A stretch of 64,000 nt of DNA from Treponema sp. (GTDB lineage Bacteria > Spirochaetota > Spirochaetia > Treponematales > Treponemataceae), in NCBI GenBank assembly GCA_016286535.1, contig JAEESZ010000005.1, forward strand, positions 156,585 to 220,584, read 5' to 3'. The notes under the pieces are model-generated. The model saw nothing but the letters and a program-made list of their open reading frames with translations. It was not told the origin of the DNA and did not search any database. How positions within the stretch are numbered: position 1 is the first letter of the stretch; every line of letters begins with the position of its first letter. A program made the translations under genes and the position numbers. Below are positions 5,877 to 42,852 of this stretch, one piece after another.

Positions 5877-7805
5877 ATGGTTTTTGAAAGTAATTATACA
5901 GTAGTAAAAATGATTCAGAATTCAGCAAACGAATTTGCTGAAATTACAGCCCAGCTCAGAAGATTAAAGGGCGGCGAATTTGAACCAATCAATTATAGAA
6001 CTATGTTCCAGTATGGTCTGGATTTTGGAGCAGCTTTATTAAAACTTGGAGTAAAACGTGAACAGCCAATTGGTTTAATATCTGATGACCGTGCAGAATG
6101 GCAGTGGGCAGATATTGGTATTATGGCTATTGGTGCAATTGATGTTCCTCGTGGTTGTGATGCTACACTTTCAGACCTGGAAAAAATTCTTTCCGTTACA
6201 GAAACAGAAATTGTAATTGCAGAAAACAATTCACAGGTAAATAAGATTGTAAGTTTAAAAGAAAAATTACCATGTGTTAAAAAAATCATCTACTTTGAGC
6301 CGGACTTAAAGGACGAAGTTTCTAAGGCTGCAAAAGATGCAGGTGTAGAACTTCTTTTCTTTATGGATATGCTTAAAGAAGGTCAGATCTGGCGTGTTGA
6401 GCATAAGGGCGAAGTAGAAGCTGAAGTTGAAAAAGGAAAAGGTGATGATGTTGCAACAATCATCTTTACTTCCGGAACAACAGGAACTCCAAAGGGAGTA
6501 CAGCTTACACATATGAACTTCCTTGCCCAGCTTGATGAGGTTATTGAAAGAATCTATCTGAACCCTGGCGACAGAGCACTTTGTGTATTGCCAATCTGGC
6601 ACGTATTCATGCGCGAAGTTGAATATGTAATCTTAATTCAGGGTTGTGCAATGTGTTATTCAAAACCTGTTGGTTCAATCCTCCTTGCCGATTTTAAGAA
6701 ACTTAATCCTCAGGTATTGCCAGCTGTTCCACGCGTTTTCGAAGCCGTATACGAAGGTGTTACAAAGAAGATGCGCAAGACAGGCGGTATTGTTCTTAAG
6801 ATGTTCAACTTCTTTGTTGGCGTTGCAAAAGTTCACAAAAGAATGCAGAGAAAAATGTTTGCACAAGATGCCTGCTTTACAAGTACAAAACAGCCTTTGT
6901 GGTGGATTCTCTTCTTTATTCCATGGGTATTATTATGGCCACTTTATTTCTTAGGCGACTTACTTGTATTCAGAAAAATTAAGGCTATGCTTGGAGAAAA
7001 CTTCCGTGCCGGTGTTGCAGGTGGTGGTTCTTTCCCTAAATATATTGATGAATTCTTCTGGGCAATTGGAGTTAATGTAGTAGAAGGTTATGGTATGACA
7101 GAAACAGCACCAATCGTTGCTGTTCGTCCAATTGCGGCTCCTGTATTCAGAACAATTGGTTCAGCTATTCGTGGAGTTCAGGTAAGAATTGTAGACCCTG
7201 TAGACGGTTTTGTTTTAGGAAGATGTAAACAGGGTGTTTTACAGGTAAAGGGTCCAACTGTAATGAAGGGCTATTACAAACGTCCTGACCTTACAGCAAA
7301 AGCAATCAATGAGGAAGGCTGGCTCGATACAGGTGACCTTGCAATTCTTACAATTCATGATGAATTACAGATTCGCGGAAGAATTAAGGATACAATCGTT
7401 CTTAGTGGTGGAGAAAACCTTGAACCACTTCCAATTGAAACAAAACTTTCAGAAAGCCGTTATATTAAGGCAGCCGTTGTTGTTGGACAGGACCAGCGTT
7501 TCTTAGGTGCTTTAATTCTTGTTGATGAAGAAGAAATTAAGAACTATGCAGCCGAAAACGGAATTGCATACGACACTTACGAAAATCTGCTTGCTTCTGA
7601 ACCAATTCAGAAGTTATACGATAACGAAATTGGAAACCTTATTTCTTTCAAGACAGGCTTTAAGATGTTCGAAAGAATTTCCCGCTTCTGCCTGATTACA
7701 AAACCATTTGAAGTTGGTGTAGAACTTTCTGCTAAGCAGGAAATCATGCGCTTTAGAATTAATGAAATCTACAAGAAAGAAATTGAAGCAATGTTCAAGG
7801 ACTAA
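5877..7805 (+). CDS. Long-chain fatty acid--CoA ligase (AMP-forming)
   Basis: AMP-binding motif IIFTSGTTGTPKGV, followed by GYGMTET and TGDL...GRIKD. I prefer the ATG at 5877 (GGAG 6 nt upstream); the ATG at 5865 is also possible. Confidence 0.85.
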   Translation: MVFESNYTVVKMIQNSANEFAEITAQLRRLKGGEFEPINYRTMFQYGLDFGAALLKLGVKREQPIGLISDDRAEWQWADIGIMAIGAIDVPRGCDATLSDLEKILSVTETEIVIAENNSQVNKIVSLKEKLPCVKKIIYFEPDLKDEVSKAAKDAGVELLFFMDMLKEGQIWRVEHKGEVEAEVEKGKGDDVATIIFTSGTTGTPKGVQLTHMNFLAQLDEVIERIYLNPGDRALCVLPIWHVFMREVEYVILIQGCAMCYSKPVGSILLADFKKLNPQVLPAVPRVFEAVYEGVTKKMRKTGGIVLKMFNFFVGVAKVHKRMQRKMFAQDACFTSTKQPLWWILFFIPWVLLWPLYFLGDLLVFRKIKAMLGENFRAGVAGGGSFPKYIDEFFWAIGVNVVEGYGMTETAPIVAVRPIAAPVFRTIGSAIRGVQVRIVDPVDGFVLGRCKQGVLQVKGPTVMKGYYKRPDLTAKAINEEGWLDTGDLAILTIHDELQIRGRIKDTIVLSGGENLEPLPIETKLSESRYIKAAVVVGQDQRFLGALILVDEEEIKNYAAENGIAYDTYENLLASEPIQKLYDNEIGNLISFKTGFKMFERISRFCLITKPFEVGVELSAKQEIMRFRINEIYKKEIEAMFKD

Positions 7806-7815
7806 GGACAAAGCT

Positions 7816-8709
7816 TTAGAGGACTCCTAAAAGGATTCCCAAAATTACAATAAAAGCACAAAATAATTTATAGGCGGTGTTTGATTCCTTAAAAATCAAT
7901 TTACCGCCTATAATTGTTATAAGGCAGCCGCTTTGTTTTATAAGAGTCATAATTGTAACCCTGCTGCCTTCCATTCCGTTTGCAATAAATAAAGCCTTAT
8001 CTGCAATTACAAACATAAGAGCCATAATCCAGATATATTTGTTTTTTAAAACCGAAAGATGAATCTTTTCTCTGGTTATAAGAATATATAATATATAGTA
8101 AGAAATTAAAAAAAGCATATACCAGAATTGCAGCTGTGAACTGGTAATATCTTTCATTAAGATTTTGTCTAAAAAGCCAGAAAGGGAATTGAGCATGCAG
8201 GAAGCCAGGGCTAGAATTACAAAAAAGGTTCTGGTATTATCTTTAGGCAGATTTGTTGTAAGGTAGGCTGGGGTTTCCTGAACTTTAAAAAGCCGGCATA
8301 AAAATTTGGGCTTGAACCTTAAAAGTAAAAGACCTGCACATACAAAAGCCAGTCCAAAAATCTGATTAATTCTAAGACTTTCGTGTAAAAAAACTATGCC
8401 TAAAAAGGTTGCAAATAAAACCCGCGATAAATCCAGAACCCCGTAAAGACTAACGGGTAATCTCTTTAAAGAATGAAAAGAAAAAATCCAGGCAAGAAAA
8501 ATAAAAAAAGATTTAAGGGCAATAAGGAAATAAAACTTTACTTCCATTCCGCCGGCAAATTTTGCCTGTGGGGTTACAAGTAAAAAAGAGATAAAGGTGT
8601 ATACAACAAGCACCTCCATTACGGAGCTTGTCTGCATGGCAAGTTTCTTTGTAATCTCCCTGCAGCCTTTTAAAAGGCCGTAAAGAAGAACTAAAAGCAT
8701 CCAGGCCAT
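7816..8709 (-). CDS. EamA/DMT family transporter
   Basis: A 297-aa protein with about 10 TM helices and a two-fold internal EamA-like organisation. Confidence 0.6.
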   Translation of the reverse strand: MAWMLLVLLYGLLKGCREITKKLAMQTSSVMEVLVVYTFISFLLVTPQAKFAGGMEVKFYFLIALKSFFIFLAWIFSFHSLKRLPVSLYGVLDLSRVLFATFLGIVFLHESLRINQIFGLAFVCAGLLLLRFKPKFLCRLFKVQETPAYLTTNLPKDNTRTFFVILALASCMLNSLSGFLDKILMKDITSSQLQFWYMLFLISYYILYILITREKIHLSVLKNKYIWIMALMFVIADKALFIANGMEGSRVTIMTLIKQSGCLITIIGGKLIFKESNTAYKLFCAFIVILGILLGVL

Positions 8710-9305: not shown

Positions 9306-12064
9306 TCTATTCTACTAACTCCAGAATTATCTTTATAAACTTTTATTTTTTTCTCAATACGGTTTTCTAATTCTTCTACGTGAGAAATTATGCCTATCAG
9401 TTTATTACCTTTTGAAAGTTCTTCCAATGCCCTCATAGCCTTGTTTAAGGTTTCGGAATCCAGAGTTCCAAAGCCTTCGTCTATAAACATGGAATCCAGT
9501 GTAATACCGCCCGAATGCTCCTGAACTTCGTCGGCAAGGCCAAGGGCCAGCGAAAGAGAGGCCTGAAACTGTTCGCCGCCAGAAAGACTTTGAACAGAAC
9601 GTTTTCTTCCGGTGTAGAAATCTTTTATATCAAGGTCCAGGCCCAGCTCAGAACCATCTTCCTCTATGCGCCTGCACAGCTCGTACTTACCGTCAGTCAT
9701 AGTCCGCAGCCGCAAATTAGCCCTGCGGTTAATCTGGTCCAGGCATTTCATCTGAACATAGTTTTCGAGAGAAGGCTTTCCGCTTTTTCCCCGAGAAGAG
9801 CCGGAGGCAACTTCGCTTAATGCCCATACGCTCTGGTAATATTCATCAGCTTTAGAAATTTCCGGAAGAACTTCTTTAATATTTTCTATACACTTTTTGT
9901 TAATACCAATTCGTTGAGAAAGCAGGTCGCGCTCAAAGTTCAACTTGTCTTTTTCGCGCAGAAGTTCAGACTGTTTTTCTACTTCCTTATCATAATCAAT
10001 TTCTTTGCCCTCTTTTAAGCTTTTTTCAAGAGTGTCTATTGAGCCCTTAAAAGCAGAAATATTGTTTTCGCATTCATCTTTCTGGGCTTTAGCTTTTTCT
10101 TCAGCTTCTTTTGCAAGCTTTATGCCGGAGCGGATTTTATTAATTTCTTCTTCTGCTTCTTCAGAGGTTTTAAACTCAAGCTTATTTTTTTCTTCGTTCA
10201 GGGCATTATTTTCAGCTTCAGTCTTTGCCTTCAGGGCAGAAGTTTCTGCAGAAAATCTGTTGTACTGGTCGCTGGTAGTGCTTAATAAAGCTTCATTTTC
10301 CGGAATCAGTTTTTCAAGTTCTGATCTGCGCTTTTTATTTTTCTCTTCAAGAAGGATTTCCCCGTTAATACTTTTCTGCCTTTCGGTCAGAAGAGACACT
10401 TTTTCTTCCAGGCAATTTTCTGCTTCAGAAGCATCAGGATTAAAGGCTTCAAAATGTTTTTTGCCGGCCAGGAGAATCTGTTCAGTAAGATTTTCTGTAA
10501 GACTTTTTTGACTGCTTGCTCTGGCAGTTATTTGAGTAAGATTTTTTTGCAGTTCTTCGCACAGACTTTTTGCCTTTTCCAATTCGTTCTGCGAAGGTGC
10601 ATTTTCTGATTTTTTTGCAGGAGCAGGATGATTTAAAGAGCCGCAGACAGGACAGGGACAATTATCCTTAAGGTCTTCTGCAAGAATTCCGGCCTGTTCC
10701 ATATTAAAAAGTTTGAGCTTTTGAACATAATCAGAGTTTTTACTTTCGTAATTAGACTGGGCAGATAAAAGCTCTTCCTGCACTTTTTTAAGAATTTCCT
10801 TTTCTGTTTTAAGTTTGAAAAGATTATTCTGAAGAGCCTTTAATTCTTCTTTTTGTAAATCAATTTTCTCAAGCTCACCTTTTAGGGTCAGAAGTTTTTC
10901 TCCCGCGTCCTTCAGCCCCCCTTCTTCCTTTTTAAGCTCTTCAATCGCGCCGCAAAGTTCTTCTTTTTTCTTTAAAAGTTCAAGGCATTTCTTTTCATTA
11001 GTACTTATTTCTAAAAGCGCCTTATTTATGAGGCCGGCCTTATTTTCTATTTCTTTGTAAAGAGGCAGGGAATTTTCAATAACAGCAGCCCGGCTTTCTG
11101 AAGGAGCAAGTTCCTGAACTTTGTTTTGACTCTGTAAAAGTTCTTCTTTTTTTAGAAGAAGTTTTTCTTCCTCGCATTTCAAGAGGGCTTTTGTGCTTTC
11201 AAGTTTTTCCCTGGTCTGTTTTCTTTTTTCTCCTTCGTTTATAAGAAGACCTGCCTGGGTAAGCTTTTTGTCGAGCTCTGTCAGCTGGTCAGAAATTTCT
11301 GAAGCCTTTTTAGCATCATATTGTTCAAGCTTTTCTAAGAGCAGAATTTCTTCTTCGGTAAGATACTGAGAATCTTTTATTTTTTGAATCTCTTCAAGGT
11401 TTTCGTCGCATGGAACGATTTGATTCAACAGGGTTCTGAGCTTTTCCTTTAAAAACTGAAGATTTTTTTCTGCTTCGCTTTTTCTGCTTTTAAGGGTGTT
11501 TTGAAGCATTTCATATTTTTCTGTATGAAAAAGTTCCCTGAAAATCTTTTCTTTCTGGTCTTTTTTAGAAAGAAGAAGCTCTTGAAATTTTCCCTGGGCA
11601 ATCATTGCAATGCGGCAGAACTGATCTTTTTTTAAGCCAAGAATTTTTTCTACTTCCTGACTCACTTTTATGCTGCCTTCCAGAGGCGGCGTAGAGCTTT
11701 CGCTAAGGAAGTCCAGGCGGGCATTTGCCTTTTCTGTAGTTAGACCATCCCCTTTACGCGATTTTCTTTCGTAATCAGGATTTCTTATTATGTGATATTT
11801 TTTATCTTTTACTTCAAAAAAAAGTTCAACTTCGGTAGGTGTGTTTTCGTCTGCAAAGTGAGAGCGAAGCATTTCAACATCGCGAACATCTCCGCTGGAG
11901 CTTCCGTAAAGGGCAAAGGTAATTGCATCAAAAATTGTAGTTTTTCCGCTTCCAGTATCTCCGCTAATTAAAAAAAGCCCTCGAATACCTGATTTTTCAA
12001 AATCGATTTCGGTTTTATCTTTGTAAGATTCAAAACCTGTCATTATTAATTTTAGAGGTTTCAT
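9302..12064 (-). CDS. sbcC: Exonuclease SbcC (SMC-like ATPase)
   Basis: N-terminal Walker A GDTGSGKTT, a long coiled coil, the zinc hook CPVCGS, and C-terminal LSGGE and DEGFGTLD motifs. Confidence 0.9.
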   Translation of the reverse strand: MKPLKLIMTGFESYKDKTEIDFEKSGIRGLFLISGDTGSGKTTIFDAITFALYGSSSGDVRDVEMLRSHFADENTPTEVELFFEVKDKKYHIIRNPDYERKSRKGDGLTTEKANARLDFLSESSTPPLEGSIKVSQEVEKILGLKKDQFCRIAMIAQGKFQELLLSKKDQKEKIFRELFHTEKYEMLQNTLKSRKSEAEKNLQFLKEKLRTLLNQIVPCDENLEEIQKIKDSQYLTEEEILLLEKLEQYDAKKASEISDQLTELDKKLTQAGLLINEGEKRKQTREKLESTKALLKCEEEKLLLKKEELLQSQNKVQELAPSESRAAVIENSLPLYKEIENKAGLINKALLEISTNEKKCLELLKKKEELCGAIEELKKEEGGLKDAGEKLLTLKGELEKIDLQKEELKALQNNLFKLKTEKEILKKVQEELLSAQSNYESKNSDYVQKLKLFNMEQAGILAEDLKDNCPCPVCGSLNHPAPAKKSENAPSQNELEKAKSLCEELQKNLTQITARASSQKSLTENLTEQILLAGKKHFEAFNPDASEAENCLEEKVSLLTERQKSINGEILLEEKNKKRRSELEKLIPENEALLSTTSDQYNRFSAETSALKAKTEAENNALNEEKNKLEFKTSEEAEEEINKIRSGIKLAKEAEEKAKAQKDECENNISAFKGSIDTLEKSLKEGKEIDYDKEVEKQSELLREKDKLNFERDLLSQRIGINKKCIENIKEVLPEISKADEYYQSVWALSEVASGSSRGKSGKPSLENYVQMKCLDQINRRANLRLRTMTDGKYELCRRIEEDGSELGLDLDIKDFYTGRKRSVQSLSGGEQFQASLSLALGLADEVQEHSGGITLDSMFIDEGFGTLDSETLNKAMRALEELSKGNKLIGIISHVEELENRIEKKIKVYKDNSGVSRIE

Positions 12065-13887: not shown

Positions 13888-14670
13888 TTATAAATTGCCG
13901 ATTGCTGAATCAGAAGTTTCATTTTTTATTTCTTTAAACACTATTTTACAGTCGTAATAGCATGCGATGAAGCCCTGTTTATCCCAAACTTGCAGAATAT
14001 CATAAATTCTATTAAGTCTGTTTCTAATTGTGCCTTCTGTTTTCTTTAATTCACTGGCAATAAGTTTGTACTGTTTATTGTCTAAAACTCCTTGCAGCAA
14101 AGGAATATCTTCTTCTTTTAGTCCTGAAAATTCGGCAAGATTCAAGACTTTATGAGAAGAACTTTCATTATTAGCATATCCAAATTGTACAAAAAAAATA
14201 ATGAGGGTTAAAAGGAATATGTAAGCACATGTGTCCAATATAAAAGAACAGAATTGGGTTTTATTAAAAGTGGTATTTATAAATATTAATACAAAAAGTA
14301 AAATAAATATAAATATTAACTTTAATGACTTTTTTTTGATAAAAAAGCCACGTGCATATAAGACGCTGATTCCTAGAAAATACATTATAATTCCCATAGG
14401 ATTATTTTTTTCGGAAACAATAATATCTATAGAATAGTAGAAACTGATAAATGAAAAAAATTCAATTTTTTGGGGATAAATAATTAAAATCGTAAATAAA
14501 ACGATGGACAATATGTTTTCACAATCAGATACTGTACTTCTTGGAGAGAATGTTACTCTATTAGGAGATAAAAATATATTATAAAGTTCAACAAAAACAA
14601 GTAAAACAATAGCAAGGATGGATAATATTCTTATATTAGTAAGATATTTTTTTTCAAGCTTTTTTTTCAT
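13888..14670 (-). CDS. Membrane protein with C-terminal LuxR/GerE-type HTH
   Basis: About 5-6 TM helices in the first ~165 aa. The C-terminal EEDIPLLQGVLDNKQYKLIASELKKTEGTIRNRLNRIYDILQV fits the LuxR/GerE (sigma-70 region 4-like) HTH pattern. Confidence 0.55.
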   Translation of the reverse strand: MKKKLEKKYLTNIRILSILAIVLLVFVELYNIFLSPNRVTFSPRSTVSDCENILSIVLFTILIIYPQKIEFFSFISFYYSIDIIVSEKNNPMGIIMYFLGISVLYARGFFIKKKSLKLIFIFILLFVLIFINTTFNKTQFCSFILDTCAYIFLLTLIIFFVQFGYANNESSSHKVLNLAEFSGLKEEDIPLLQGVLDNKQYKLIASELKKTEGTIRNRLNRIYDILQVWDKQGFIACYYDCKIVFKEIKNETSDSAIGNL

Positions 14671-14671
14671 T

Positions 14672-15226
14672 CTATTCTTTCCAACCGTTTATAGGTGCAT
14701 CGAAAATAGAATCTAACAGACTGTTAGAATAGCAGGAAATCTTTTGTTCAAGTTCTTTTTTTAACCCTTCATAATTCCATTTTTTAGAATTGAGAGGATT
14801 ATAGATATTATTTTCTTTATCAGATTTCTGAGAATTGTGGTAGCCTTCTATCATTATTAATGCCAGCATATTCATTCCATAAGAAAGGACGTTTTGGTCA
14901 CCGCCTTCAAATGTTGCAATACAATCTAAACGATTATACACGTTGAGATCATCAGATGGTAAATGGGCAAAGTATTTTTGGAAACCGCGTATTTCTGCAA
15001 TATAAATACATAAATGCGATATGGCTGTTCGTTCAGGTTCTACGCAGTTTGCGGCATAAGGAATGGCAGCAATTAATTTTGCAGTCCTACAGTTTGTGAA
15101 CCAAAGTTCTTCTTCTTTTGAAAAACGGAATACGACAGCAATTTCTTTTACTAAATAGTCCCAGGAGGCAATAAAAGACCCTTCTTCGTTCAATGTATAA
15201 GCAAGATTAGAATTGTACATATTCAC
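14672..15226 (-). CDS. Hypothetical cytoplasmic protein (184 aa)
   Basis: ORF only, with no signal peptide or motif I can assign. Its stop is 1 nt from the start of the LuxR-type gene, so the two probably form an operon. It is divergent from the lipoprotein operon. Confidence 0.45.
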   Translation of the reverse strand: MNMYNSNLAYTLNEEGSFIASWDYLVKEIAVVFRFSKEEELWFTNCRTAKLIAAIPYAANCVEPERTAISHLCIYIAEIRGFQKYFAHLPSDDLNVYNRLDCIATFEGGDQNVLSYGMNMLALIMIEGYHNSQKSDKENNIYNPLNSKKWNYEGLKKELEQKISCYSNSLLDSIFDAPINGWKE

Positions 15227-15378: not shown

Positions 15379-16530
15379 ATGAAGAAAACAAAAGTAAAAT
15401 GTGTTTTTATTGTTATGGCTATTTCTATGGCTTTAAGCTGTAAGAATAATGTTAATGTTCAGGTAAAGAATGGAGATAACAGTGCGCAGGCAATTGCAGA
15501 AGACTATTTTAATATAGTTTGCATGCAAAGCAATATGGTAAATGCAAGAGCACTAACCGAAGAGAGTTATCCGGATATTCTTTACGAAACAATAATAACA
15601 GATGAAAATGATGAAATAATCAGTTTTGCAGATTTAGATGCAAAAAGTCAGAAAGAATTTTATGAAATCTGGAAGGAAGATTTTATTGGAGATTTAACAG
15701 GAAAATTACTAACAGATTCTAACCTAAAAGAAATTGTAGAAATAGAAAATGAAGCCTTTATTGAGACTGCAAGTTCATCCAGCAGAGCAGTTTTTACAGA
15801 AAGAGATATAGAAAGTTTTTTTAAGCAATATGAAAAAAATTTTAATAAACTTGTTAAAAACTCTGTGGCTGCAAGAGGAGCTTCTTCCGGAAACTCTTTG
15901 ATAAGAATTGAAGATGGAGAAATAATTCCTGAATCTTTGAAAATCTTTTCAGAAAATTATAAGAAAGGAAGATTTCTTGTAAATACAAATTCTTCAGATT
16001 CTGATATTAGTGGGTACTTAGGACACACTTCTCTGATGTGTTATGATAATGTAGAACCAAATTGGGCAAAAGATATATCTTTAAAAGCAACAATCACATC
16101 ATATCCTCTTAATACTACTAAAGGAACAACCTGGGTAGGTCAGACTGATGGAGTTCAGTATGAACCAGTAGGATACTGGTGTGGAACAAAAGGTGCACCC
16201 ACAGTTTTAATTTTAGATGTATATCGGACTGTATGGAAGTGGTTTACAAAAACTGCATATATGGCAACAGACGAGGAACATAATACAGCTGTAGATAAAG
16301 CAGATGATCATTTAGGAAAGCCTTATAATTGGGATTTTGTCAAATTGAAGAAAGATAAAGGAATGTGGGATACAGATAAGTTTTATTGTTCATCTTTAGT
16401 ATTCAGAGCCTGGTATGATACAAATAAAAAGTATTCACTAAATACAAATATTCTTTATGTAAGACCTGCCAGTCTGGTTGCTTCTAACAACAGTATAATT
16501 ATTGCAAGATATGAGAATGAGGAGGAATAA
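15379..16530 (+). CDS. Lipoprotein with C-terminal YiiX/YaeF-like permuted papain-fold hydrolase domain (module copy A1)
   Basis: Lipobox MALSC. Motif order is YLGHTS ... DGVQYEPVGYW ... HLGKPYNWDF ... KFYCSSLVFRAWY, i.e. His before Cys, with GKPY-x-x-F and YCS-hydrophobic motifs as in the YiiX (C92) family. Confidence 0.7.
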   Translation: MKKTKVKCVFIVMAISMALSCKNNVNVQVKNGDNSAQAIAEDYFNIVCMQSNMVNARALTEESYPDILYETIITDENDEIISFADLDAKSQKEFYEIWKEDFIGDLTGKLLTDSNLKEIVEIENEAFIETASSSSRAVFTERDIESFFKQYEKNFNKLVKNSVAARGASSGNSLIRIEDGEIIPESLKIFSENYKKGRFLVNTNSSDSDISGYLGHTSLMCYDNVEPNWAKDISLKATITSYPLNTTKGTTWVGQTDGVQYEPVGYWCGTKGAPTVLILDVYRTVWKWFTKTAYMATDEEHNTAVDKADDHLGKPYNWDFVKLKKDKGMWDTDKFYCSSLVFRAWYDTNKKYSLNTNILYVRPASLVASNNSIIIARYENEEE

Positions 16531-17116
16531 ATGAAATTAGTACCTCTCTTTCTATCTCTTTTTGTATTTATTTCCTGTCAGAGCTGGTATAAGACCAGTG
16601 TAGATATGAGTAAAATAACAAACAAAACTACATACCAGCCTTTTACAGAATTAAATGACCCAATAGTTGTAAATATGCCAGTTTATGAGACACTTTACTT
16701 ATGGGGTAATGAAAACAATAAATTTAAGCAGAACAGAATAGGTGATATGTTTGTAATTTATGACTGGGAAAGTGATGAAATTTACGACTGGGTCTTTTAC
16801 GGGAATGAAAGTTTTTATTGTCTACCTAACATAATTCAAGTGGGAAGTAACCCCAAGTACTATATAAATTCTCTGGATTCTTCTGGAACAATAGCAAAGC
16901 TTGAAGCAGATAAGACAAGTGTAACTTTATATAAAACAGACAAGAGAGGTACTTTTTTTAATTATTCAACACCCGGAAAATACTGTCTTCGAGATTATGC
17001 AAGGCATTCAGATGAATTGAATAAGGTATTGTTTTGTCTGAATATATTTGACTGTGAAAAAGGCCAGTATACTGATGCAGATATACAGGTTCCTACAGAT
17101 GCCTATGGGTATATAA
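16264..17116 (+). repeat. Conserved block of the tandem duplication (copy 1); matches 18729-19581
   Basis: Alignment by eye at a constant offset of 2465 nt shows roughly 93-95% identity. The block spans the A1 C-terminus, the gene junction and B1 residues 1-195. The flanking segments are much more diverged. Confidence 0.75.
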
Positions 17117-17730
17117 GCCAACCTGTAGCAGATAATGAAGGAAACTTTTATTTTGCAAATGTATTAAATGGTTATAGTCATATTTATAGAGTAGATTGTA
17201 GTACAGAGACTGTGGAAATAAAAGATATAAATATAAATTGTTTTAAAAGTAATACAGAAGTATATGAATATACTTTTGATGTGCGTTATGTAATTGATGA
17301 GGAAAATCTTTTTGTATATAAGGGGCATTTAGGTTTGCCTCCATATTATGGGAATAAATTGTTTTTAATGTCTTTTACAGATAATGTTAGAAAAGAATTC
17401 ACTTTAGATTTGGATGGTTATAAATGGTTGTTTAGAATTGTCTGTTCAAATAGTAATTATTATGCAATTGTCGAAGACCGCTCTGACGAACAACATTTGG
17501 TTTATGTGTACAAACTTGATATAAATAATATGACAGGTGAGATAATAAACGAAAATAATCCAATAACAATAAATTTTAATCAAGAATTGTTTGTTCGAGG
17601 AACAAGAATATATTTTTTAAACTATTTAAATCGTCATAAGATTCAATATTCATACTTTGATGTAGAAACAAAAGAAGTTAGCGAGATAAAAGTCTTGAAC
17701 CAGAAAGAAGTAGTTGGCTTTGATTTTTAG
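16531..17730 (+). CDS. Beta-rich lipoprotein, partner of the hydrolase lipoprotein (module copy B1)
   Basis: Lipobox FISC. The ATG directly abuts the A1 stop (TAAATG), and a GAGGAGG Shine-Dalgarno lies inside the A1 3' end. Aromatic-rich strand-like repeats are present. No known motif. Confidence 0.6.
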   Translation: MKLVPLFLSLFVFISCQSWYKTSVDMSKITNKTTYQPFTELNDPIVVNMPVYETLYLWGNENNKFKQNRIGDMFVIYDWESDEIYDWVFYGNESFYCLPNIIQVGSNPKYYINSLDSSGTIAKLEADKTSVTLYKTDKRGTFFNYSTPGKYCLRDYARHSDELNKVLFCLNIFDCEKGQYTDADIQVPTDAYGYISQPVADNEGNFYFANVLNGYSHIYRVDCSTETVEIKDININCFKSNTEVYEYTFDVRYVIDEENLFVYKGHLGLPPYYGNKLFLMSFTDNVRKEFTLDLDGYKWLFRIVCSNSNYYAIVEDRSDEQHLVYVYKLDINNMTGEIINENNPITINFNQELFVRGTRIYFLNYLNRHKIQYSYFDVETKEVSEIKVLNQKEVVGFDF

Positions 17731-17840
17731 AGTACAAAATGATCATATTAGGGGTTTTCTCTGTTGATTATTTTGAATTGTATAAATAGACTTCAAAAAA
17801 AGATAATAAAATAAAAATTTAAAAATAAAAGGAGTTGTTT

Positions 17841-18995
17841 ATGAAAAAAACAAAATTAAAATGTATTTTTATTGTTACGGCTATTTTTATGGCTTTAAGC
17901 TGTAAGAATAATGTTACTGTTCAGCTAAAGGCAGGAGATAACAGTGCACAGACAGTTGCAGAAGACTATTTTAATATAGTTTGCATGCAGAGCAATATGG
18001 TAAATGCAAGAGCACTAACCGAAGAGTGTTATCCGGATATTCTTTATGAAACAATAATAACAGATGAAAATGATGAAATAATCAGTTTTGCAGATTTAGA
18101 TGCAGAAAGTCAGAAAAAGCTTTATGAAGTCTGGAAGGAAGATTTTATTAGAGAACTTACAGAAAAGATAGAATCAGATTCAGATTTAAAGGAGATGGTT
18201 GAATTAGAAAATGAAGCTTTTATGGAAACTGCAAGTAATTTGAATAGAACTGCCTTTGCAGAAAAAGACTTGGAAAGCTTTTTTAAGCAGTATGAAAAGA
18301 ACTTAAGTAAACTAATAGATAAAGCGGATACAGTGAGAAGAGCCTCATCTAAAAAGTCTTTAATAAGAATAGAAGATGGAAAACTAATTCAGAAATCTGT
18401 AACAATATTTTCAGATAATTATAAGAAGGGAAGAATTTTAGTTAATAAAAAAGGCAGTAGTTCAAATTCCGGCAGCTATCTCGGGCATGCATCCATGATG
18501 TGTTATGATGAAAAGAAAGATAAATGGACGGAAGATATTTCTGCAAAAGCAACAATAACTTCATATCCCCATAACACAGAAAGAGGGACTACCTGGGAAG
18601 GACAGACAGACGGAGTTCAATATGAACCAATAGGATACTGGTGTGGAACAAAAGGCGCTCCTTCAGTAATAATATTAGATGTAGGTTGTGAGGTATGGAA
18701 TAAAGATTTAGTAAAGACCTGGTATACTGCAACAGACGAGGAACATAATACAGCTGTAGATAAAGCAGATGATCATTTAGGAAAGCCTTATAATTGGGAT
18801 TTTGTCAAACTGAAGAAAGATAAAGGAATGTGGGATACAGCTAAGTTTTATTGTTCATCTTTAGTATTCAGAGCCTGGTATGATACAAACAAAAACTATT
18901 CATTACATACAAATTTTCTTTATGTAAGACCAGCCAGTCTGGTTGCTTCTAACAACAGTATAATTATTGCAAGATATGAGAATGAGGAGAAATAA
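17841..18995 (+). CDS. Lipoprotein with YiiX/YaeF-like permuted papain-fold hydrolase domain (module copy A2)
   Basis: About 75-80% identical to A1 by eye, with identical stretches at the N-terminus and across the last ~88 aa. Motifs YLGHAS and KFYCSSLVFRAWY. The ATG at 17841 is preferred over the TTG at 17835. Confidence 0.7.
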   Translation: MKKTKLKCIFIVTAIFMALSCKNNVTVQLKAGDNSAQTVAEDYFNIVCMQSNMVNARALTEECYPDILYETIITDENDEIISFADLDAESQKKLYEVWKEDFIRELTEKIESDSDLKEMVELENEAFMETASNLNRTAFAEKDLESFFKQYEKNLSKLIDKADTVRRASSKKSLIRIEDGKLIQKSVTIFSDNYKKGRILVNKKGSSSNSGSYLGHASMMCYDEKKDKWTEDISAKATITSYPHNTERGTTWEGQTDGVQYEPIGYWCGTKGAPSVIILDVGCEVWNKDLVKTWYTATDEEHNTAVDKADDHLGKPYNWDFVKLKKDKGMWDTAKFYCSSLVFRAWYDTNKNYSLHTNFLYVRPASLVASNNSIIIARYENEEK

Positions 18996-19581
18996 ATGAA
19001 ATTTCTACCTTTCTTACTCCCATTAACTTTATTTGTATCCTGTCAGAGCTGGTATAAGACCAGTGTAGATATGAGTAAAATAACAAACAAAACTACATAC
19101 CAGCCTTTTACAGAATTAAATGACCCAATAGTTGTAAATATGCCGGTTTATGAGACACTATATTTATGGGGTAATGAAAACAATAAATTTAAACAGAACA
19201 GAATAGGCGACATGTTTGTAATATATGACTGGGAAAGTGATGAAATTTACGACTGGGTCTTTTACGGGAAGGAAAGTTTTTATTGTCTACCCCACATAAT
19301 TCAGGTAGGAAGTAATCCTAAGTATTATATAAATTCTCTGGATTCTTCTGGAACAATAGCAAAGCTTGAAGCAGATAAAACAAGTGTGACCTTATATCAG
19401 ACGGACAGGAGAGGAACTTTCTTTAATTATTCAACGCCTGGTAAATATTGTCTTCGGGATTATGCAAGGCATTCAGATGAACTGAATAAGGTCTTATTTT
19501 GTCTGAATATATTTGACTGTGAAAAAGGAGAATATACGGCTGCTGATATTCAGATTCCTACAGATGCTTATGGGTATATTT
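18729..19581 (+). repeat. Conserved block of the tandem duplication (copy 2); matches 16264-17116
   Basis: See 16264-17116. Most differences are third-codon-position changes, for example ccc aag tac versus cct aag tat. Confidence 0.75.
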
Positions 19582-20195
19582 TGACTATAAATTCAAGTAA
19601 AAGTGGTGATTTTTATTTTGGGAATATCCTGGATGGTAAAGGACAAGTTTGTAAAGTGAATTGTGAAGCTGGAAGTGTAGAAATAAAAGAACCAGGGATA
19701 AACTGTTATAAAGAGAATTCAACAAGTTATAAATATAATATCGATGTAATATATATAAAAGATGATGATTTCTTATTCTTAAATAAAAGCCCCTTAGGTT
19801 CTGCTCCATATATAGGAAACAAACTATATCTGTATTCTTTCGCAGAAAATACAAAAAAAGAGTTCTCTTTAAGTACGAGTGGATATGAATTATTTAGTAG
19901 AATTGTACAAGTAAATGACAATTATTATTTAATTACCACAGATCATTCTTCAGAGGAGTGTTCAATTAGTATATATAAACTAAATCTTGAAAACATGTCA
20001 GGGGAAAAGATTAGCCAGGATAATTCTATTTTTATTTCACTAACACAGGAACCTCTAGTTCGAGGTAATAGAATTTATATTTTCAATTACTGGAACTCTC
20101 ATAAAATCCAATACCTATATTTTGATGTAGAAACAAAGGAAGTAAGCCCTATTAAAGTTCTGAACCAGAAAGAAGTAGTAGGCTTTGATTTTTAA
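18996..20195 (+). CDS. Beta-rich lipoprotein partner (module copy B2)
   Basis: Lipobox FVSC, with a TAAATG junction to A2. Residues 16-195 are about 97% identical to B1, residues ~196-370 only about 35-40% identical, and the last ~30 aa nearly identical again. Confidence 0.6.
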   Translation: MKFLPFLLPLTLFVSCQSWYKTSVDMSKITNKTTYQPFTELNDPIVVNMPVYETLYLWGNENNKFKQNRIGDMFVIYDWESDEIYDWVFYGKESFYCLPHIIQVGSNPKYYINSLDSSGTIAKLEADKTSVTLYQTDRRGTFFNYSTPGKYCLRDYARHSDELNKVLFCLNIFDCEKGEYTAADIQIPTDAYGYILTINSSKSGDFYFGNILDGKGQVCKVNCEAGSVEIKEPGINCYKENSTSYKYNIDVIYIKDDDFLFLNKSPLGSAPYIGNKLYLYSFAENTKKEFSLSTSGYELFSRIVQVNDNYYLITTDHSSEECSISIYKLNLENMSGEKISQDNSIFISLTQEPLVRGNRIYIFNYWNSHKIQYLYFDVETKEVSPIKVLNQKEVVGFDF

Positions 20196-20213
20196 TAATA
20201 AAAGGAGTTGTTT

Positions 20214-24742: not shown

Positions 24743-25630
24743 ATGTATTCAGATTCACTTTTTGATTTTTCTAAAATTACAGATGAACTGGGCCTGGAGG
24801 AAGGTAAAGAAATCCTCCTTGAACTTTCAGAAAATTCTTCGAATTATGCTCTGGATGGCGGAATGTCTGCAGAAGATATCTGGCAGCGCAGTCAGAGGGT
24901 TCAGGATTGTATTGATTTAATAGAAGATAATAACCTGAAAAATAAGATTTCTAATATGATTTATTTTGCCTGCGGAGTTATGCCAGATTCTGATTCTGTA
25001 GAAAACCGCTTTGAGGTTGTAGAAAACCTTGAAAATGTCATAAATGATTTTAAATCATCAGATGATCCTTTTGCTTCCCATCTTATTGCCCTGGGTCCCG
25101 GCGGAATAGACCACGACTGGGATTCTGTTGAATACAGCGGTCGTGACCACGAATATTTTGACTATTCTACAATAGGAGATGAAAAAGATTTATTTGCCCT
25201 TGAGCTTACCCTTGCAAAAAAACTTAATATGCCATTTATTTTGCATTCCAGAAAAGGATTCAAAGAAACTTCAGATGTATTAAAGGCTGTAAAGTGGAAT
25301 AAAGGACTTGTTCACGGCTTTTCTTATTCAAAATCTGAACTGGAGTTTTTTCTTGATCTAGGCTGGTATATCAGTTTTAGCGGTACCGTTACCTATGGTG
25401 GAAAAAAGAATTTTTCAGATATTTCGGATTTAATAGAATATGTTCCAAAAGACAGAATTCTTATAGAAACAGATTCTCCATTTTATCCGCCAGTTCCTGT
25501 AAAGAGTGATATAAATGTGCCGGGAAACATTAAGTATATTTACGAATATATTAGCAGCAGACGAAATATTACCTGCAGAAAACTTAACGAAATTGTAAGT
25601 TCAAACTTTCAGAATCTCTTTAACCTGTAA
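24743..25630 (+). CDS. TatD family metal-dependent hydrolase with N-terminal extension
   Basis: Motifs GPGGIDHDW, ILHSR, HGFS and ETDSPF. I use the ATG at 24743; the track ORF from 24689 overlaps the upstream gene. Confidence 0.75.
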   Translation: MYSDSLFDFSKITDELGLEEGKEILLELSENSSNYALDGGMSAEDIWQRSQRVQDCIDLIEDNNLKNKISNMIYFACGVMPDSDSVENRFEVVENLENVINDFKSSDDPFASHLIALGPGGIDHDWDSVEYSGRDHEYFDYSTIGDEKDLFALELTLAKKLNMPFILHSRKGFKETSDVLKAVKWNKGLVHGFSYSKSELEFFLDLGWYISFSGTVTYGGKKNFSDISDLIEYVPKDRILIETDSPFYPPVPVKSDINVPGNIKYIYEYISSRRNITCRKLNEIVSSNFQNLFNL

Positions 25631-40362: not shown

Positions 40363-41607
40363 TTAGTTGAAGCGTTTGTCTTCAATACGTTTTGTTTTCT
40401 TTTCTGAACGAGGAAGTTCACCAATTCCAACAACTTCTACATCTGGAGTAAGGTTGTACTTCTGTTTGAAGTTGTACTTAATTCCTAAGGCAACTTCTGC
40501 ACGGTCTACACCAGGTTCTACTTCTACGAAGACTGTCATCTTGTCTTTTCCGTCCTGGTGTTCAATTGTAACTCTGTATTCACTTGAAGTTCCAGGAACT
40601 GCTTTAATTACATCTTCAACTGTACTTGGGAAAAGAATGTTTCCTTTTACCTTGAACATATCATCTGAGCGGCCAAGAATCTGGCTGATACGTGGATAAG
40701 AACGGCCACAAGGACATTTTTCTGTAACAAAAGAAGCCAGATCATGAGTTCGGAAGCGGAATAATGGAGCACCTTCCTTAACTAAAGTTGTAAGGCAGAT
40801 TTCTCCAATCTGTCCTTCTGGAACCGGCTTTCCTGTTTCAGGATCAAGAATTTCAAGGTAAACATAATCATCAAAAATATGAATACCTGCATCAGATTTA
40901 TCGCAGTTAATACCAATTCCCGGTCCGTAACATTCTGTAAGGCCATAAATATCATAAAGTTCAATGCCAAGAATATTTTTAATTCTGTTACGCATTTTAT
41001 CGCCCCAGCGTTCAGAACCGATAATACCTTTTTTAAGGTGAATATTATTCATTAAACCACGCTGTTCAACCTGTTCAGCGAGCAGAAGGGCATAAGAAGA
41101 GGTTGCACAAATTACAGTTGATTTTAAATCCTGCATCATCTGTAACTGTTTTTCTGTATTACCAGGACCCATTGGAATAGCCATAGCACCAAGTCGTTCA
41201 CAGCCAGCCTGGAAACCAATACCTGCAGTCCAAAGGCCATAGCCTGGTGTAATCTGGATTCTATCTTTTTTAGTTATGCCGGCTAATTCGTAGCAGCGGG
41301 CAAACATAATAGACCAGTCTTCAACGTCTTTTGCAGTATAAGGAACTACAACAGGAGCGCCAGTTGTTCCCGAAGAAGAGTGAATTCTTACAATTTCCTC
41401 TTCTGGTACGGCTGCCAGTCCAAGTGGATAAGCTTCTCTTAAATCCTGCTTTGAGCAGAAAGGAACCAGTTCTTCGAAAGATTTCTGATCTTTAATATCG
41501 TCAGGATTTACATTCTTAAAGCGCTCTGTATAAAAAGGATTTCCACAGGCTTTTACACGTCTAACCTGTGCTCTAATTTGTTCTAATTGTTTTTCTGTTA
41601 ATTGCAT
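40363..41607 (-). CDS. paaK: Phenylacetate--CoA ligase family (PaaK-like aryl-acetate CoA ligase)
   Basis: Motifs NPFY, KQDLREAYP, HSSSGTTGAPVVV and YGLTE, 414 aa in length. Confidence 0.85.
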   Translation of the reverse strand: MQLTEKQLEQIRAQVRRVKACGNPFYTERFKNVNPDDIKDQKSFEELVPFCSKQDLREAYPLGLAAVPEEEIVRIHSSSGTTGAPVVVPYTAKDVEDWSIMFARCYELAGITKKDRIQITPGYGLWTAGIGFQAGCERLGAMAIPMGPGNTEKQLQMMQDLKSTVICATSSYALLLAEQVEQRGLMNNIHLKKGIIGSERWGDKMRNRIKNILGIELYDIYGLTECYGPGIGINCDKSDAGIHIFDDYVYLEILDPETGKPVPEGQIGEICLTTLVKEGAPLFRFRTHDLASFVTEKCPCGRSYPRISQILGRSDDMFKVKGNILFPSTVEDVIKAVPGTSSEYRVTIEHQDGKDKMTVFVEVEPGVDRAEVALGIKYNFKQKYNLTPDVEVVGIGELPRSEKKTKRIEDKRFN

Positions 41608-41672: not shown

Positions 41673-42842
41673 TTATTTGGGATTAATTGTCATGGTAGAG
41701 TAGTCCATAACATAAGTGTAGGGCGCTTTTTCCCAGGTATCTAAGTCAAAATAGGTATAAGAGTCATTTCCGTACATAAAATAAATACGACTGCCACGTA
41801 ACCATTCATTTTCTGTTGCCCAGATATCAATACGGTCACTAACACGTTCTACTTCGAGAGTATCAGTATTTATCTGATATACATAAACACAATAGTAATT
41901 TGTTATGTTCGATTTACCAAAACACTCAATATATAATTTATCTTTGTATAAAAAACCGCTTGGCAAATAACCATCATCTATATCTTCGGGAAAACTGTAA
42001 CTCTTTTCTGAAATCAGATTTCCTGTTTCGGAACTATATTTTCTTATAATGCTTTCATAATCATTTACAACTGAAGACTGAAATAAGATTCCGTTCTTTA
42101 CAGCAATGACTTTATCAGTACCATGGCTTTTAAAATTAATTACATCGTCTATCGTGTAATTATTGCAGTCGATTTTTGCCAGATATCGTAAATTTTCGAA
42201 TTGTCTGTCTTTTTTCTCGTAAGAAATCCAAAGATAACCATTATCATCTTCAATTGGAAATGTTATATCTGATTCTGTTTCAAATCTAATTTTATCTTTC
42301 AGAAGAATTTCTTTTTCTGCATCAAAGAAGCTGCAGGTTGTTTGTGGATAATTTTCATAGTAATCAAACATAATACCTTTTTCTCCTTTAAAAAAGGATG
42401 GTTCTATGTAACTATGTACATCACTTGTGTCGTAAATTGTAACTTTGTTTGAATCAGGACTTATACAGCCTACAACTCCACCATAAGATGATGAATAATA
42501 TTTCTTTGGAGAGGTGCCTAATTCTATAGCTCTTTTCATTACAGAGCCAGGATTGCTTGGGTAATAAACCCAGTCAAAAATAGTATCGGTCTCCCAGTCT
42601 ATAACCACAAAAACGTTACCCCTGTTATAAGATACTCCGTCCAGGCAGGGAAGTCCTAAAAAGGTCTTTTCCCACATAACATCTGCAATTATAACAAGAG
42701 GGTCATTTAAATGTTCAAAGTTCTTTATAGTTGTTTTTCCGGTAACCTTTCCGTCATCCCAGTAAGGTATGCAGGAAGAAAATAAAAAGAATATGGAAAT
42801 AAGGAAAAGTCTGCAGATAAATTTATAAAAATTATTTTTCAT
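41673..42842 (-). CDS. Beta-rich lipoprotein partner (module copy B3, diverged)
   Basis: Lipobox FSSC. It is homologous to B1/B2: LNDPLVII...VFVVIDWETDTIFDWVYY...SPKKYY versus LNDPIVVN...MFVIYDWESDEIYDWVFY...NPKYY, and RGSRIYFMY...YFDLDTWE versus RGTRIYFLN...YFDVETKE. The ATG at 42842 is preferred. Confidence 0.6.
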   Translation of the reverse strand: MKNNFYKFICRLFLISIFFLFSSCIPYWDDGKVTGKTTIKNFEHLNDPLVIIADVMWEKTFLGLPCLDGVSYNRGNVFVVIDWETDTIFDWVYYPSNPGSVMKRAIELGTSPKKYYSSSYGGVVGCISPDSNKVTIYDTSDVHSYIEPSFFKGEKGIMFDYYENYPQTTCSFFDAEKEILLKDKIRFETESDITFPIEDDNGYLWISYEKKDRQFENLRYLAKIDCNNYTIDDVINFKSHGTDKVIAVKNGILFQSSVVNDYESIIRKYSSETGNLISEKSYSFPEDIDDGYLPSGFLYKDKLYIECFGKSNITNYYCVYVYQINTDTLEVERVSDRIDIWATENEWLRGSRIYFMYGNDSYTYFDLDTWEKAPYTYVMDYSTMTINPK

Positions 42843-42852
42843 ATACACTTCC

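Follow-up and report, generated by a model that had tools for sequence, protein, structure and literature searches.

The roles of the catalytic residues in the permuted NlpC/P60 family have been described; lipoprotein targeting is common in this family, and one of its members, YiiX, binds fatty acid (PMC3142127). The permuted members act on lipid or acyl bonds and not on peptidoglycan (PMC3142127, PMC7387801, PMC12994826); the domain is found as a lipid-targeting toxin in Tox-Act1, a proven phospholipase (PMC12994826), and in the exported YiiX-like enzyme LnsA, which, in the LnsA/LnsB system of lipoprotein N-acylation in Staphylococcus aureus, cannot act on lipid-modified substrates without an additional envelope protein that is unrelated to it (PMC7387801). 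The present analysis concerns two tandem pairs of lipoprotein genes, A1-B1 and A2-B2, at 15379-20195 in a 64,000-nucleotide stretch of DNA from Treponema sp. (GenBank assembly GCA_016286535.1, contig JAEESZ010000005.1, positions 156,585 to 220,584 of the forward strand), referred to here as the window. All four open reading frames (ORFs) are intact, A has sequence features of the permuted enzymes, and the two pairs are a mosaic of nearly identical and strongly diverged segments. This mosaic is probably the result of old allele modules, their reassortment among strains, recent intragenomic gene conversion, and purifying selection acting together.

A has in common with the YaeF/YiiX-like enzymes (PF05708) the order of the His, Tyr, and Cys motifs, with the Cys near the C terminus, and lipoprotein targeting; a relative, A3, passes the Pfam cut-off, and the A-family profile matches the YiiX motifs. 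It differs from them in having an extra N-terminal helical domain of ∼130 residues and in being always paired with a B gene. The loci of Tse1/Tsi1 and Tox-Act1 resemble the present one in their bicistronic arrangement of a hydrolase with a downstream partner, and also in their divergent arrays, orphan partners, and recombination at conserved segments; as modeled, B recalls the β-propeller of Tsi1 (PMC3391265), and the lipid-targeting toxin Tox-Act1 has a permuted NlpC/P60 domain, the kind predicted for A. However, unlike in these toxin/immunity loci, there are no type VI secretion system or other delivery genes within ∼10 kb, A has no delivery domain and is itself a lipoprotein, and B, at ∼400 residues, is far larger than typical immunity proteins. 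Segmental nonreciprocal conversion generates mosaic envelope genes in the vlsE system of Borrelia and in tprK of Treponema pallidum (PMC2632889, PMC10063172) as it does here, but in the present locus all copies are complete genes, with neither silent donor cassettes nor a single expression site, and a few stable alleles are common to strains in place of rapid within-lineage switching. The likeness to LnsA/LnsB also has its limits, because LnsB, a polytopic membrane protein, is neither a propeller lipoprotein nor encoded next to its partner, and copy-number or allele polymorphism is not described for that system.

Segmental identity and selection in the tandem copies

The genes of interest are all on the forward strand. 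A1 (15379-16530) encodes a lipoprotein of 383 residues with the lipobox LSC, and B1 (16531-17730) encodes one of 399 residues with the lipobox ISC; an intergenic joint of ∼105 nt that is kept between strains (17731-17840) separates them from A2 (17841-18995; 384 residues when translation is taken to begin at the ATG at 17841, whereas the mechanical ORF call starts from a TTG at 17835) and B2 (18996-20195; 399 residues). The start codon of B1 abuts the stop codon of A1 and its Shine-Dalgarno sequence lies inside the last A1 codons (GAGGAGGAATAAATG); B is, as read from this arrangement, translationally coupled to A. A first-pass annotation of the sequence had aligned the two copies at a fixed offset of 2465 nt. 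This is correct from a one-codon indel near 16240 in A onward, where 16264-17116 and 18729-19581 have 92.3% nucleotide identity at that offset as compared with 27-32% at all of 19 neighboring offsets, but upstream of the indel the offset in a global alignment is 2462. Recursive maximum-chi-square segmentation, with every split significant at p < 0.01 by permutation, placed breakpoints at 15687/15688, 16263/16264, 17114/17115, and 17633/17634. The block that the annotation drew over the A/B junction therefore has its edges within 2 nt of breakpoints, although the identity of 93-95% attributed to it was too high. The A 5′ block (15379-15687), which comprises the signal peptide and the first ∼100 codons, is 93.2% identical to copy 2 at the nucleotide level; the variable middle of A (15688-16263) is 70.1% identical in nucleotides and 63% in amino acids; and the conserved block over the junction (16264-17114) is 92.5% identical in nucleotides. 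The variable part of B opens with a stretch of 25.8% identity (17115-17145) and continues at 60.9% (17146-17633), and the B tail (17634-17730) returns to 83.5%. The identity of the copies is thus far from uniform along the genes, the tested segments spanning 25.8-93.2%, and A was rightly described as conserved at both ends with a patchy middle.

At the protein level, the variable C-terminal half of B as a whole (17115-17633) has 46% amino acid and 59% nucleotide identity between the copies. The figure for residues 196-370 is likewise 46% (80 of 175 positions; 30-53% in sliding 30-residue windows), and not 35-40% as previously estimated by eye, whereas the near-identity reported for the last ∼30 residues is confirmed by 28 matches in 30. 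The signal peptide of B (residues 1-16) is 71% identical in nucleotides and 50% in amino acids, residues 17-45 are encoded by identical nucleotide sequences, and residues 101-195 are 93-97% identical. The codons that differ in the junction block comprise 39 synonymous and 20 nonsynonymous ones (33 and 7, respectively, in B 17-195 alone), so that most changes are synonymous, as claimed, but the replacements are concentrated in A 296-383 and the B signal peptide, outside B 17-195. The peptides quoted in support of these claims and the codon example ccc aag tac versus cct aag tat are present in the sequence.

Nei-Gojobori estimates of synonymous divergence (dS) and of the ratio of nonsynonymous to synonymous divergence (dN/dS) for each segment distinguish two kinds of conservation. 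Synonymous change is almost nil in residues 1-90 of A (dS ∼0.10), in residues 296-383 of A (dS 0.08), and in residues 17-45 of B (dS 0), and these segments have therefore been homogenized recently. In contrast, B 46-120 (dS 0.41, dN/dS 0.027) and B 121-195 (dS 0.73, dN/dS 0.04) combine diverged synonymous sites with a dN of 0.011-0.029, which shows that B 46-195 is old sequence under strong purifying selection (dN/dS 0.03-0.04 over a dS of 0.41-0.73). The B tail (residues 371-399), with a dS of 1.18 (∼1.2) and a dN/dS of 0.05, is also under purifying selection and is not a product of conversion, since its synonymous sites have diverged. Fourfold degenerate sites give the same picture, 2 of 56 differing in the low-dS blocks versus 23 of 44 in the middle of A (Fisher test, 1e-8), and 1 of 27 in A 296-383 versus 19 of 48 in B 46-195 (p = 8e-4). 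The junction block is a composite: recent homogenization affected its portion of A and some 30 codons at the start of mature B, and the rest of the N-terminal half of B is old. The view that purifying selection maintains both the hydrolase core and the N-terminal half of B consequently holds for the latter, but as the main cause of the conservation of the catalytic Cys region of A it is contradicted by the dS of 0.08 and the single difference at 27 fourfold sites. In the variable parts, A 91-295 (dS 1.13, dN/dS 0.22) and B 196-370 (dS 1.87, which is saturated, and dN/dS 0.24), the divergence is ancient and has occurred under ordinary, somewhat relaxed purifying selection; at this resolution there is no signature of positive selection in them, nor, in the B half, with its average dN/dS of ∼0.24 and saturated dS, any sign of ongoing diversification.

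Allele types and cassette content among strains

Close relatives of these genes are only a handful among 5.8 billion proteins. Other strains of this Treponema species are represented by contigs whose flanks match those of the window at 95-98% identity. Across the window and these contigs, the C-terminal half of B falls into three types: type 1 in B1 and strain L002, type 2 in B2, and type 3 in L003, L004, and L006. Alleles of different types are 50-65% identical in nucleotide sequence. Those of one type, taken from different strains, agree at 98-100% in most windows of 60 nt, falling to 83-93% around nt 901-1020 of the gene; this exceeds the identity of the flanks, which is 95-97%, and that of the N-terminal half of the same genes. 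The term hypervariable, which had been applied to it, is therefore inappropriate for a region with three discrete types that are 98-100% identical over most of their length, and should be replaced by multi-allelic. The middle of A has a type 1 (A1 and L002) and a type 2 (A2 and contig L011), and the A and B types are linked in all four pairs seen. Direct evidence of exchange comes from the B allele of contig L010, which is type-3-like at nt 541-900 but 97-100% identical to type 1 at nt 901-1140, indicating two or more exchangeable submodules within the variable half of B, and from a pairwise homoplasy index (PHI) test on seven B alleles with 297 informative sites (p = 0.001). Thus, of the two processes that had been suggested for the variable regions, segmental exchange is supported by the PHI test and the recombinant allele, but ongoing diversification is not, given the dN/dS of ∼0.24. 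Conversion can also be seen directly in A, where residues ∼296-330 of A1 are the same as those of A2 and of L011; the corresponding part of the type-1 gene of L002, a strain with a single A-B pair, differs over residues ∼301-330 and is 5 residues shorter there, which indicates a recent conversion from A2 to A1 in the genome of the window. The sequence of the A 5′ block, including the signal peptide, also heads A3 of strain L006, a protein that is elsewhere 37% identical to A1.

The content of the locus varies among strains as an array of cassettes in which A-B pairs are accompanied by genes for three further proteins, C, X, and Y. The gene order is C-X-Y-A-B-A-B-C in the window and in an independent Joint Genome Institute (JGI) metagenome contig, L001; C-X-Y-A-B-C-C in L002; c-X-(ΔA)B-C-C in L003, where c is a truncated C1; C-(ΔA)B-C in L004, whose contig ends inside the last C; and X-(ΔA)B-C-C-A3-B3-C in L006. 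Y is deleted in L003 and L004. In the three strains with ΔA (B genes at 10001-11245 of L003, 5799-7043 of L004, and 4696-5940 of L006), an in-frame deletion of 1101 nt, equivalent to 15430-16530 of the window and with one identical junction, fuses the first 16 codons of A to B in an ORF of 414 residues with a doubled signal-peptide N-region. The deletion removes the Shine-Dalgarno sequence of B that is located in the last A codons, but because the fusion is in frame, B stays translatable from the start codon of A. In another assembly, GCA_016648615.1, the equivalent of B1 (6954-8078) is called as a protein of 374 residues from Met26 instead of 399; the shorter call may reflect either the gene caller used or damage to the part that encodes the signal peptide. 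The adjacency of A and B is also found in A3-B3 of L006, in the distant relatives L009 and L012, and in a third, distant pair in the window, A′-B′.

The intergenic joint recurs between different neighbors, with B, C, or the divergent B3 preceding it and an A or a C gene following; copies are present at 11246-11361 of L003, at 5941-6050, 7165-7281, and 9696-9807 of L006, at 1246-1343 of L010, and at 130-239 of L011. At its end, A and C genes have a common ribosome-binding site and start context (AAAGGAGTTGTTTATGAAAAAAA), and a remnant of its last ∼25 nt, including the ribosome-binding site, lies between B2 and C2 in the window (20196-20213, forward strand). The joint may be a substrate for the gain and loss of cassettes by homologous recombination. 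A weak hairpin (z −2.25) is predicted directly 3′ of the B stop codon, but a clear σ70 match was not found in the joint, and promoter and terminator scans, which were no richer in matches than those of shuffled sequence, gave nothing convincing in it. A search of the whole window against Rfam gave no matches.

The array is bounded on the left by C1 (13313-13849, forward strand), which encodes a protein of 178 residues with a signal peptide and a C-terminal GYKF, and on the right by its paralogue C2 (20214-20759, forward strand; listed with ORF starts at 20208 and 20214), with 35% amino acid identity to C1. Between C1 and A1 and divergent from the latter are X (13888-14670, reverse strand), a multi-pass membrane protein of 260 residues with a C-terminal helix-turn-helix, and Y (14672-15226, reverse strand), a protein of 184 residues with neither a signal peptide nor a family match. 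Beyond these, the neighbors are SbcCD on the left and an Fe-S chemoreceptor on the right, and the G+C content at the cassette locus is 28-33% versus 35-43% across most of the window. An assembly artefact was considered as a source of the tandem arrangement and rejected, since L001 has the same arrangement with 99.94% identity over 21.2 kb and no difference in A or B. There are 13 single-nucleotide polymorphisms between the two in 21 kb, all of them outside A and B; L001 is essentially the strain of the window and is hence uninformative on population variation. The differences are clustered, 6 within 600 nt of sbcC (11276-11876) and 6 within 222 nt (25201-25423), and look like small recombination patches as opposed to scattered mutation.

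Properties of A, B, and associated proteins

A is predicted to comprise an N-terminal helical domain of ∼130 residues followed by a C-terminal domain of the permuted papain-like, YiiX type. PF05708 matches A1 with an E-value of 4.5e-5 and a score of 24.0 bits and A2 with 21.8 bits, the gathering cut-off being 27 bits; among relatives, A′ scores 17.2 bits and A3 of L006 scores 32.8 bits, above the cut-off, and P0011 and P0015 carry precomputed PF05708 matches. The A-family profile matches the structure of E. coli YiiX (2if6) with E = 6.7e-5 over a region, LGKPY...FYCSSLV, that includes the Tyr and Cys motifs. Within the family, no variation is seen at His216 or Tyr316, and Cys340 is conserved in all members whose sequence extends that far. 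It should be noted that the YiiX alignment covers the Tyr (GKPY) and Cys (YCS) motifs and that the assignment of the His is based on its invariance. The order of the motifs, His (GH[AT]S), Tyr (LGKPY), and Cys (FYCSS), indicates the permuted NlpC/P60 arrangement, and in the AlphaFold2 model of A1 (predicted local distance difference test score, pLDDT, 76) residues 180-383 form an α/β domain. Because the permuted members are lipid- or acyl-directed, A is probably an acyl hydrolase or transferase; by this analogy, its most likely activity is the cleavage or transfer of fatty-acyl groups and not the hydrolysis of peptidoglycan.

B belongs to a family without annotation, of ∼150 clusters at 50% identity, whose few named members are all from metagenome-assembled genomes (MAGs) of Treponema or Spirochaetaceae. 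A profile search of 1.84 billion cluster representatives recovered 148 clusters, nearly all of ∼400 residues, and 87 of 105 full-length relatives have a lipobox. Pfam and NCBIfam give no match to B1 or B2, and 73 family members compared singly with Pfam gave scattered lone matches. The AlphaFold2 model of B is all-β, with residues 150-390 modeled confidently (pLDDT 80-95) and residues 1-148 poorly; the variable C-terminal half is the confidently modeled β-sheet region, and the poorly modeled N-terminal 148 residues are the part most conserved across the family. The best Foldseek matches are propellers (TolB, 3e-8, and Kelch), although the TM-scores are only 0.35-0.49, and a profile of 73 sequences gives weak propeller matches in the Protein Data Bank (PDB) with E-values of 0.002-0.1. 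The B profile also has a faint resemblance to surface propeller lipoproteins, for example DUF4374 and the YncE/BtuG-like "surface layer proteins." As modeled, B is an uncharacterized β-propeller-like lipoprotein.

The C proteins are ∼180-residue proteins with signal peptides, whose C-terminal GYKF is invariant across 10 aligned copies. There are 1-3 copies per locus (in the window, L002, L003, and L006), mutually 35-53% identical; the family profile matches C1 with 7.5e-86, a homologue search of 5.8 billion proteins found 11 unnamed clusters, and comparisons with Pfam and PDB gave no match. The size, signal peptide, and terminal aromatic motif suggest that C is possibly a small outer-membrane β-barrel. 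X and its homologues have weak matches to σ70 region 4 and LuxR-like helix-turn-helix domains, and X homologues adjoin A in the distant loci L007 (3289-4188) and L009 (147-944), so that X is a possible membrane-bound regulator of the operon. Profile searches of all ORFs of the window identified the third pair, A′ (42853-44055, reverse strand; 400 residues, 28-30% identical to A1 and A2, profile 7.7e-76) and B′ (41673-42848, reverse strand; ∼390 residues, 27% identical to B1, profile 7.1e-76). The A′ stop is followed within a few bases by the B′ start, and an AMP-forming ligase-like gene (40363-41607, same strand) lies directly downstream; no X or C genes are present near this pair. A paralogue of B that is 60% identical to B′, K6D95_03175, is located at 190-1344 of contig L013 (GCA_024695805.1, JAILHM010000035.1), which belongs to the MAG of L003. 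It adjoins a CBM_4_9 protein and rhamnose-biosynthesis genes, with an upstream gene fragment at the contig edge, and since this context differs, it is not a positional orthologue of B′.

Origin of the mosaic and possible functions of the A-B pair

The explanation of the mosaic that we regard as probable is as follows. The locus is a tandem duplication of a cassette consisting of A, B, and the intergenic joint. The strain comparison shows that the variable modules, the A middle and the C-terminal B half, each occur as a small number of deeply diverged types, which different strains of the population carry nearly unchanged. Homologous recombination reassorts these modules, and the positions of the breakpoints suggest that its crossovers take place in the conserved stretches and in the ∼105-nt joint. 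Recent gene conversion between the tandem copies, evident from the near-absence of synonymous change, has wiped out synonymous and nonsynonymous differences alike in three segments (A 1-90, A 296-383, and B 17-45), whereas strong purifying selection maintains B 46-195 and B 371-399 despite their diverged synonymous sites. Several points weigh against parts of this interpretation. The saturation of dS in the variable parts makes their dN/dS a rough upper bound only, and site-specific positive selection may have acted there. Conservation in B across the family peaks at residues 21-100 and 341-380, so that part of the mosaic would arise from unequal constraint alone. The PHI test on four A alleles was not significant (p = 0.18), the sequences being too few, and the alleles in hand, ∼7 for B and 4 for A, are mostly from short metagenome contigs. 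Identity in the variable half is similar in predicted strands and loops (49% versus 42%, p = 0.36), so that a restriction of the variation to exposed loops is not directly apparent. With respect to A, both copies score below the PF05708 cut-off, and a Foldseek comparison of the full-length model with PDB gave nothing at E ≤ 0.001, with weak NlpC/P60 matches such as BT_1314 at E ∼2; the assignment of A therefore rests on motifs and profiles. It is nevertheless highly improbable that one old duplication followed by unequal constraint, without recombination or conversion, produced the pattern. The family-wide conservation of B 21-100 and 341-380 and the combination of high dS with low dN in the B tail and B 46-195 would be expected from such a history, but dS differs by more than 10-fold between adjacent segments, B 101-195 is no more conserved across the family than B 196-340 and yet is 93-97% identical between the copies, and recombinant alleles and the converted segment of A1 are seen directly. 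Programmed hypervariation, by a diversity-generating retroelement or by conversion from silent cassettes as in vls and tprK, might be entertained on account of the segmental conversion in a spirochaete lineage known for such systems, but it is scarcely credible here: no reverse transcriptase is present in the gene calls within ∼10 kb, flanking inverted repeats were not found, every copy is complete as an ORF and has a start and a ribosome-binding site of its own, and the modules are 98-100% identical between strains over most of their length, with no A or B difference between contigs that are 99.94% identical. The evolutionary mechanism of the mosaic can thus be regarded as largely resolved.

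The functional inference made in the first-pass annotation, that such a pattern is expected for effector/immunity-like specificity determinants or for variable surface-exposed regions, is plausible. In general form, it can be suggested tentatively that the variable surfaces determine specificity or exposure in some conflict, either because B neutralizes its cognate A or because the proteins are surface-exposed and under frequency-dependent pressure. The two readings were judged independently and not as shares of one total. An effector/immunity pair is a possibility that we hold with reserve: A would be a toxin that acts in the periplasm on lipids or other envelope targets, B its cognate periplasmic lipoprotein immunity protein, the variable A middle and variable B half their coevolving interface, the tandem pairs the usual arsenal, and the B genes without A orphan immunities. 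The start of B at the stop of A with a ribosome-binding site within A, the array of divergent pairs at one strain-variable locus, and the same in-frame deletion of A in three strains, which keeps B translated, are consistent with such a pair, as are the occurrence of the phospholipase toxin Tox-Act1 among permuted NlpC/P60 domains (PMC12994826) and the partial β-propeller structure of the immunity protein of the NlpC/P60 toxin Tse1 (PMC3391265). However, orphan B genes and strain-variable arrays also fit other explanations, and the linkage of A and B types in four pairs, which would be expected of cognate partners, would result from physical adjacency alone. Gene calls and Pfam matches within ∼10 kb on each side in three strains revealed no secretion-system, Rhs, PAAR, LXG, or contact-dependent inhibition (CDI) genes, the neighbors being SbcCD, chemoreceptor, esterase, TatD, SpoIIE, and similar genes; the only targeting signal of A is that of a lipoprotein, with no evident route to a target cell, and many YiiX-type enzymes are ordinary envelope lipoproteins (PMC3142127). 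In addition, B is as large as A and is most conserved across the family in its N-terminal domain, not in a variable interface, and the catalytic Cys region of A has been homogenized instead of co-diversifying.

Alternatively, A and B may form an envelope or surface lipoprotein complex under balancing selection. In it, the acyl hydrolase or transferase A would work with B, as a propeller that binds a ligand, and perhaps with C, in lipid or lipoprotein processing or nutrient capture, with exposed modules kept polymorphic by phage or host pressure. The lipoboxes on A, B, and most full-length relatives of B, the weak likeness of the B profile to surface propellers, the binding of fatty acid by YiiX and the lipid-directed, membrane-associated character of the permuted family (PMC3142127, PMC7387801), and the presence of distant single-copy A-B pairs in ordinary chromosomal contexts can all be accommodated, and balancing selection yields discrete, long-lived allele types. 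This complex is nonetheless rather doubtful, because sequence does not reveal surface exposure in spirochaetes, the variation shows no concentration in predicted loops, an obligate enzyme-partner pair fits poorly with three strains that have lost A and kept B, and the barrel nature of C is deduced only from size, signal peptide, and GYKF. A more specific proposal, which we consider improbable, is that A-B is a previously unrecognized toxin/immunity family that is free of secretion systems, in which A, a permuted NlpC/P60 enzyme with a lipid anchor and phospholipase or acylase activity, would be carried to neighboring Treponema by outer-membrane vesicles or by membrane exchange and be neutralized in the periplasm by its cognate B; the modules would set specificity, and the joint would serve to swap A-B and C cassettes at a chromosomal hotspot.

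The conservation between paralogues in this locus has two separable causes, recent conversion, recognized by low dS, and purifying selection, recognized by high dS with low dN, and treating all of it as constraint would mislead. The locus draws attention to a pair of uncharacterized lipoprotein families, A and B, whose behavior in gut spirochaetes resembles that of a locus for conflict or exposure, with discrete alleles, changes in copy number, and in-frame genes that retain only the partner. If A were a lipid-directed toxin and B its immunity protein, the pair would represent lipoprotein-based antagonism without a known secretion apparatus; if instead the pair were surface-exposed, the allele modules would be candidate determinants of phage reception or antigenicity.

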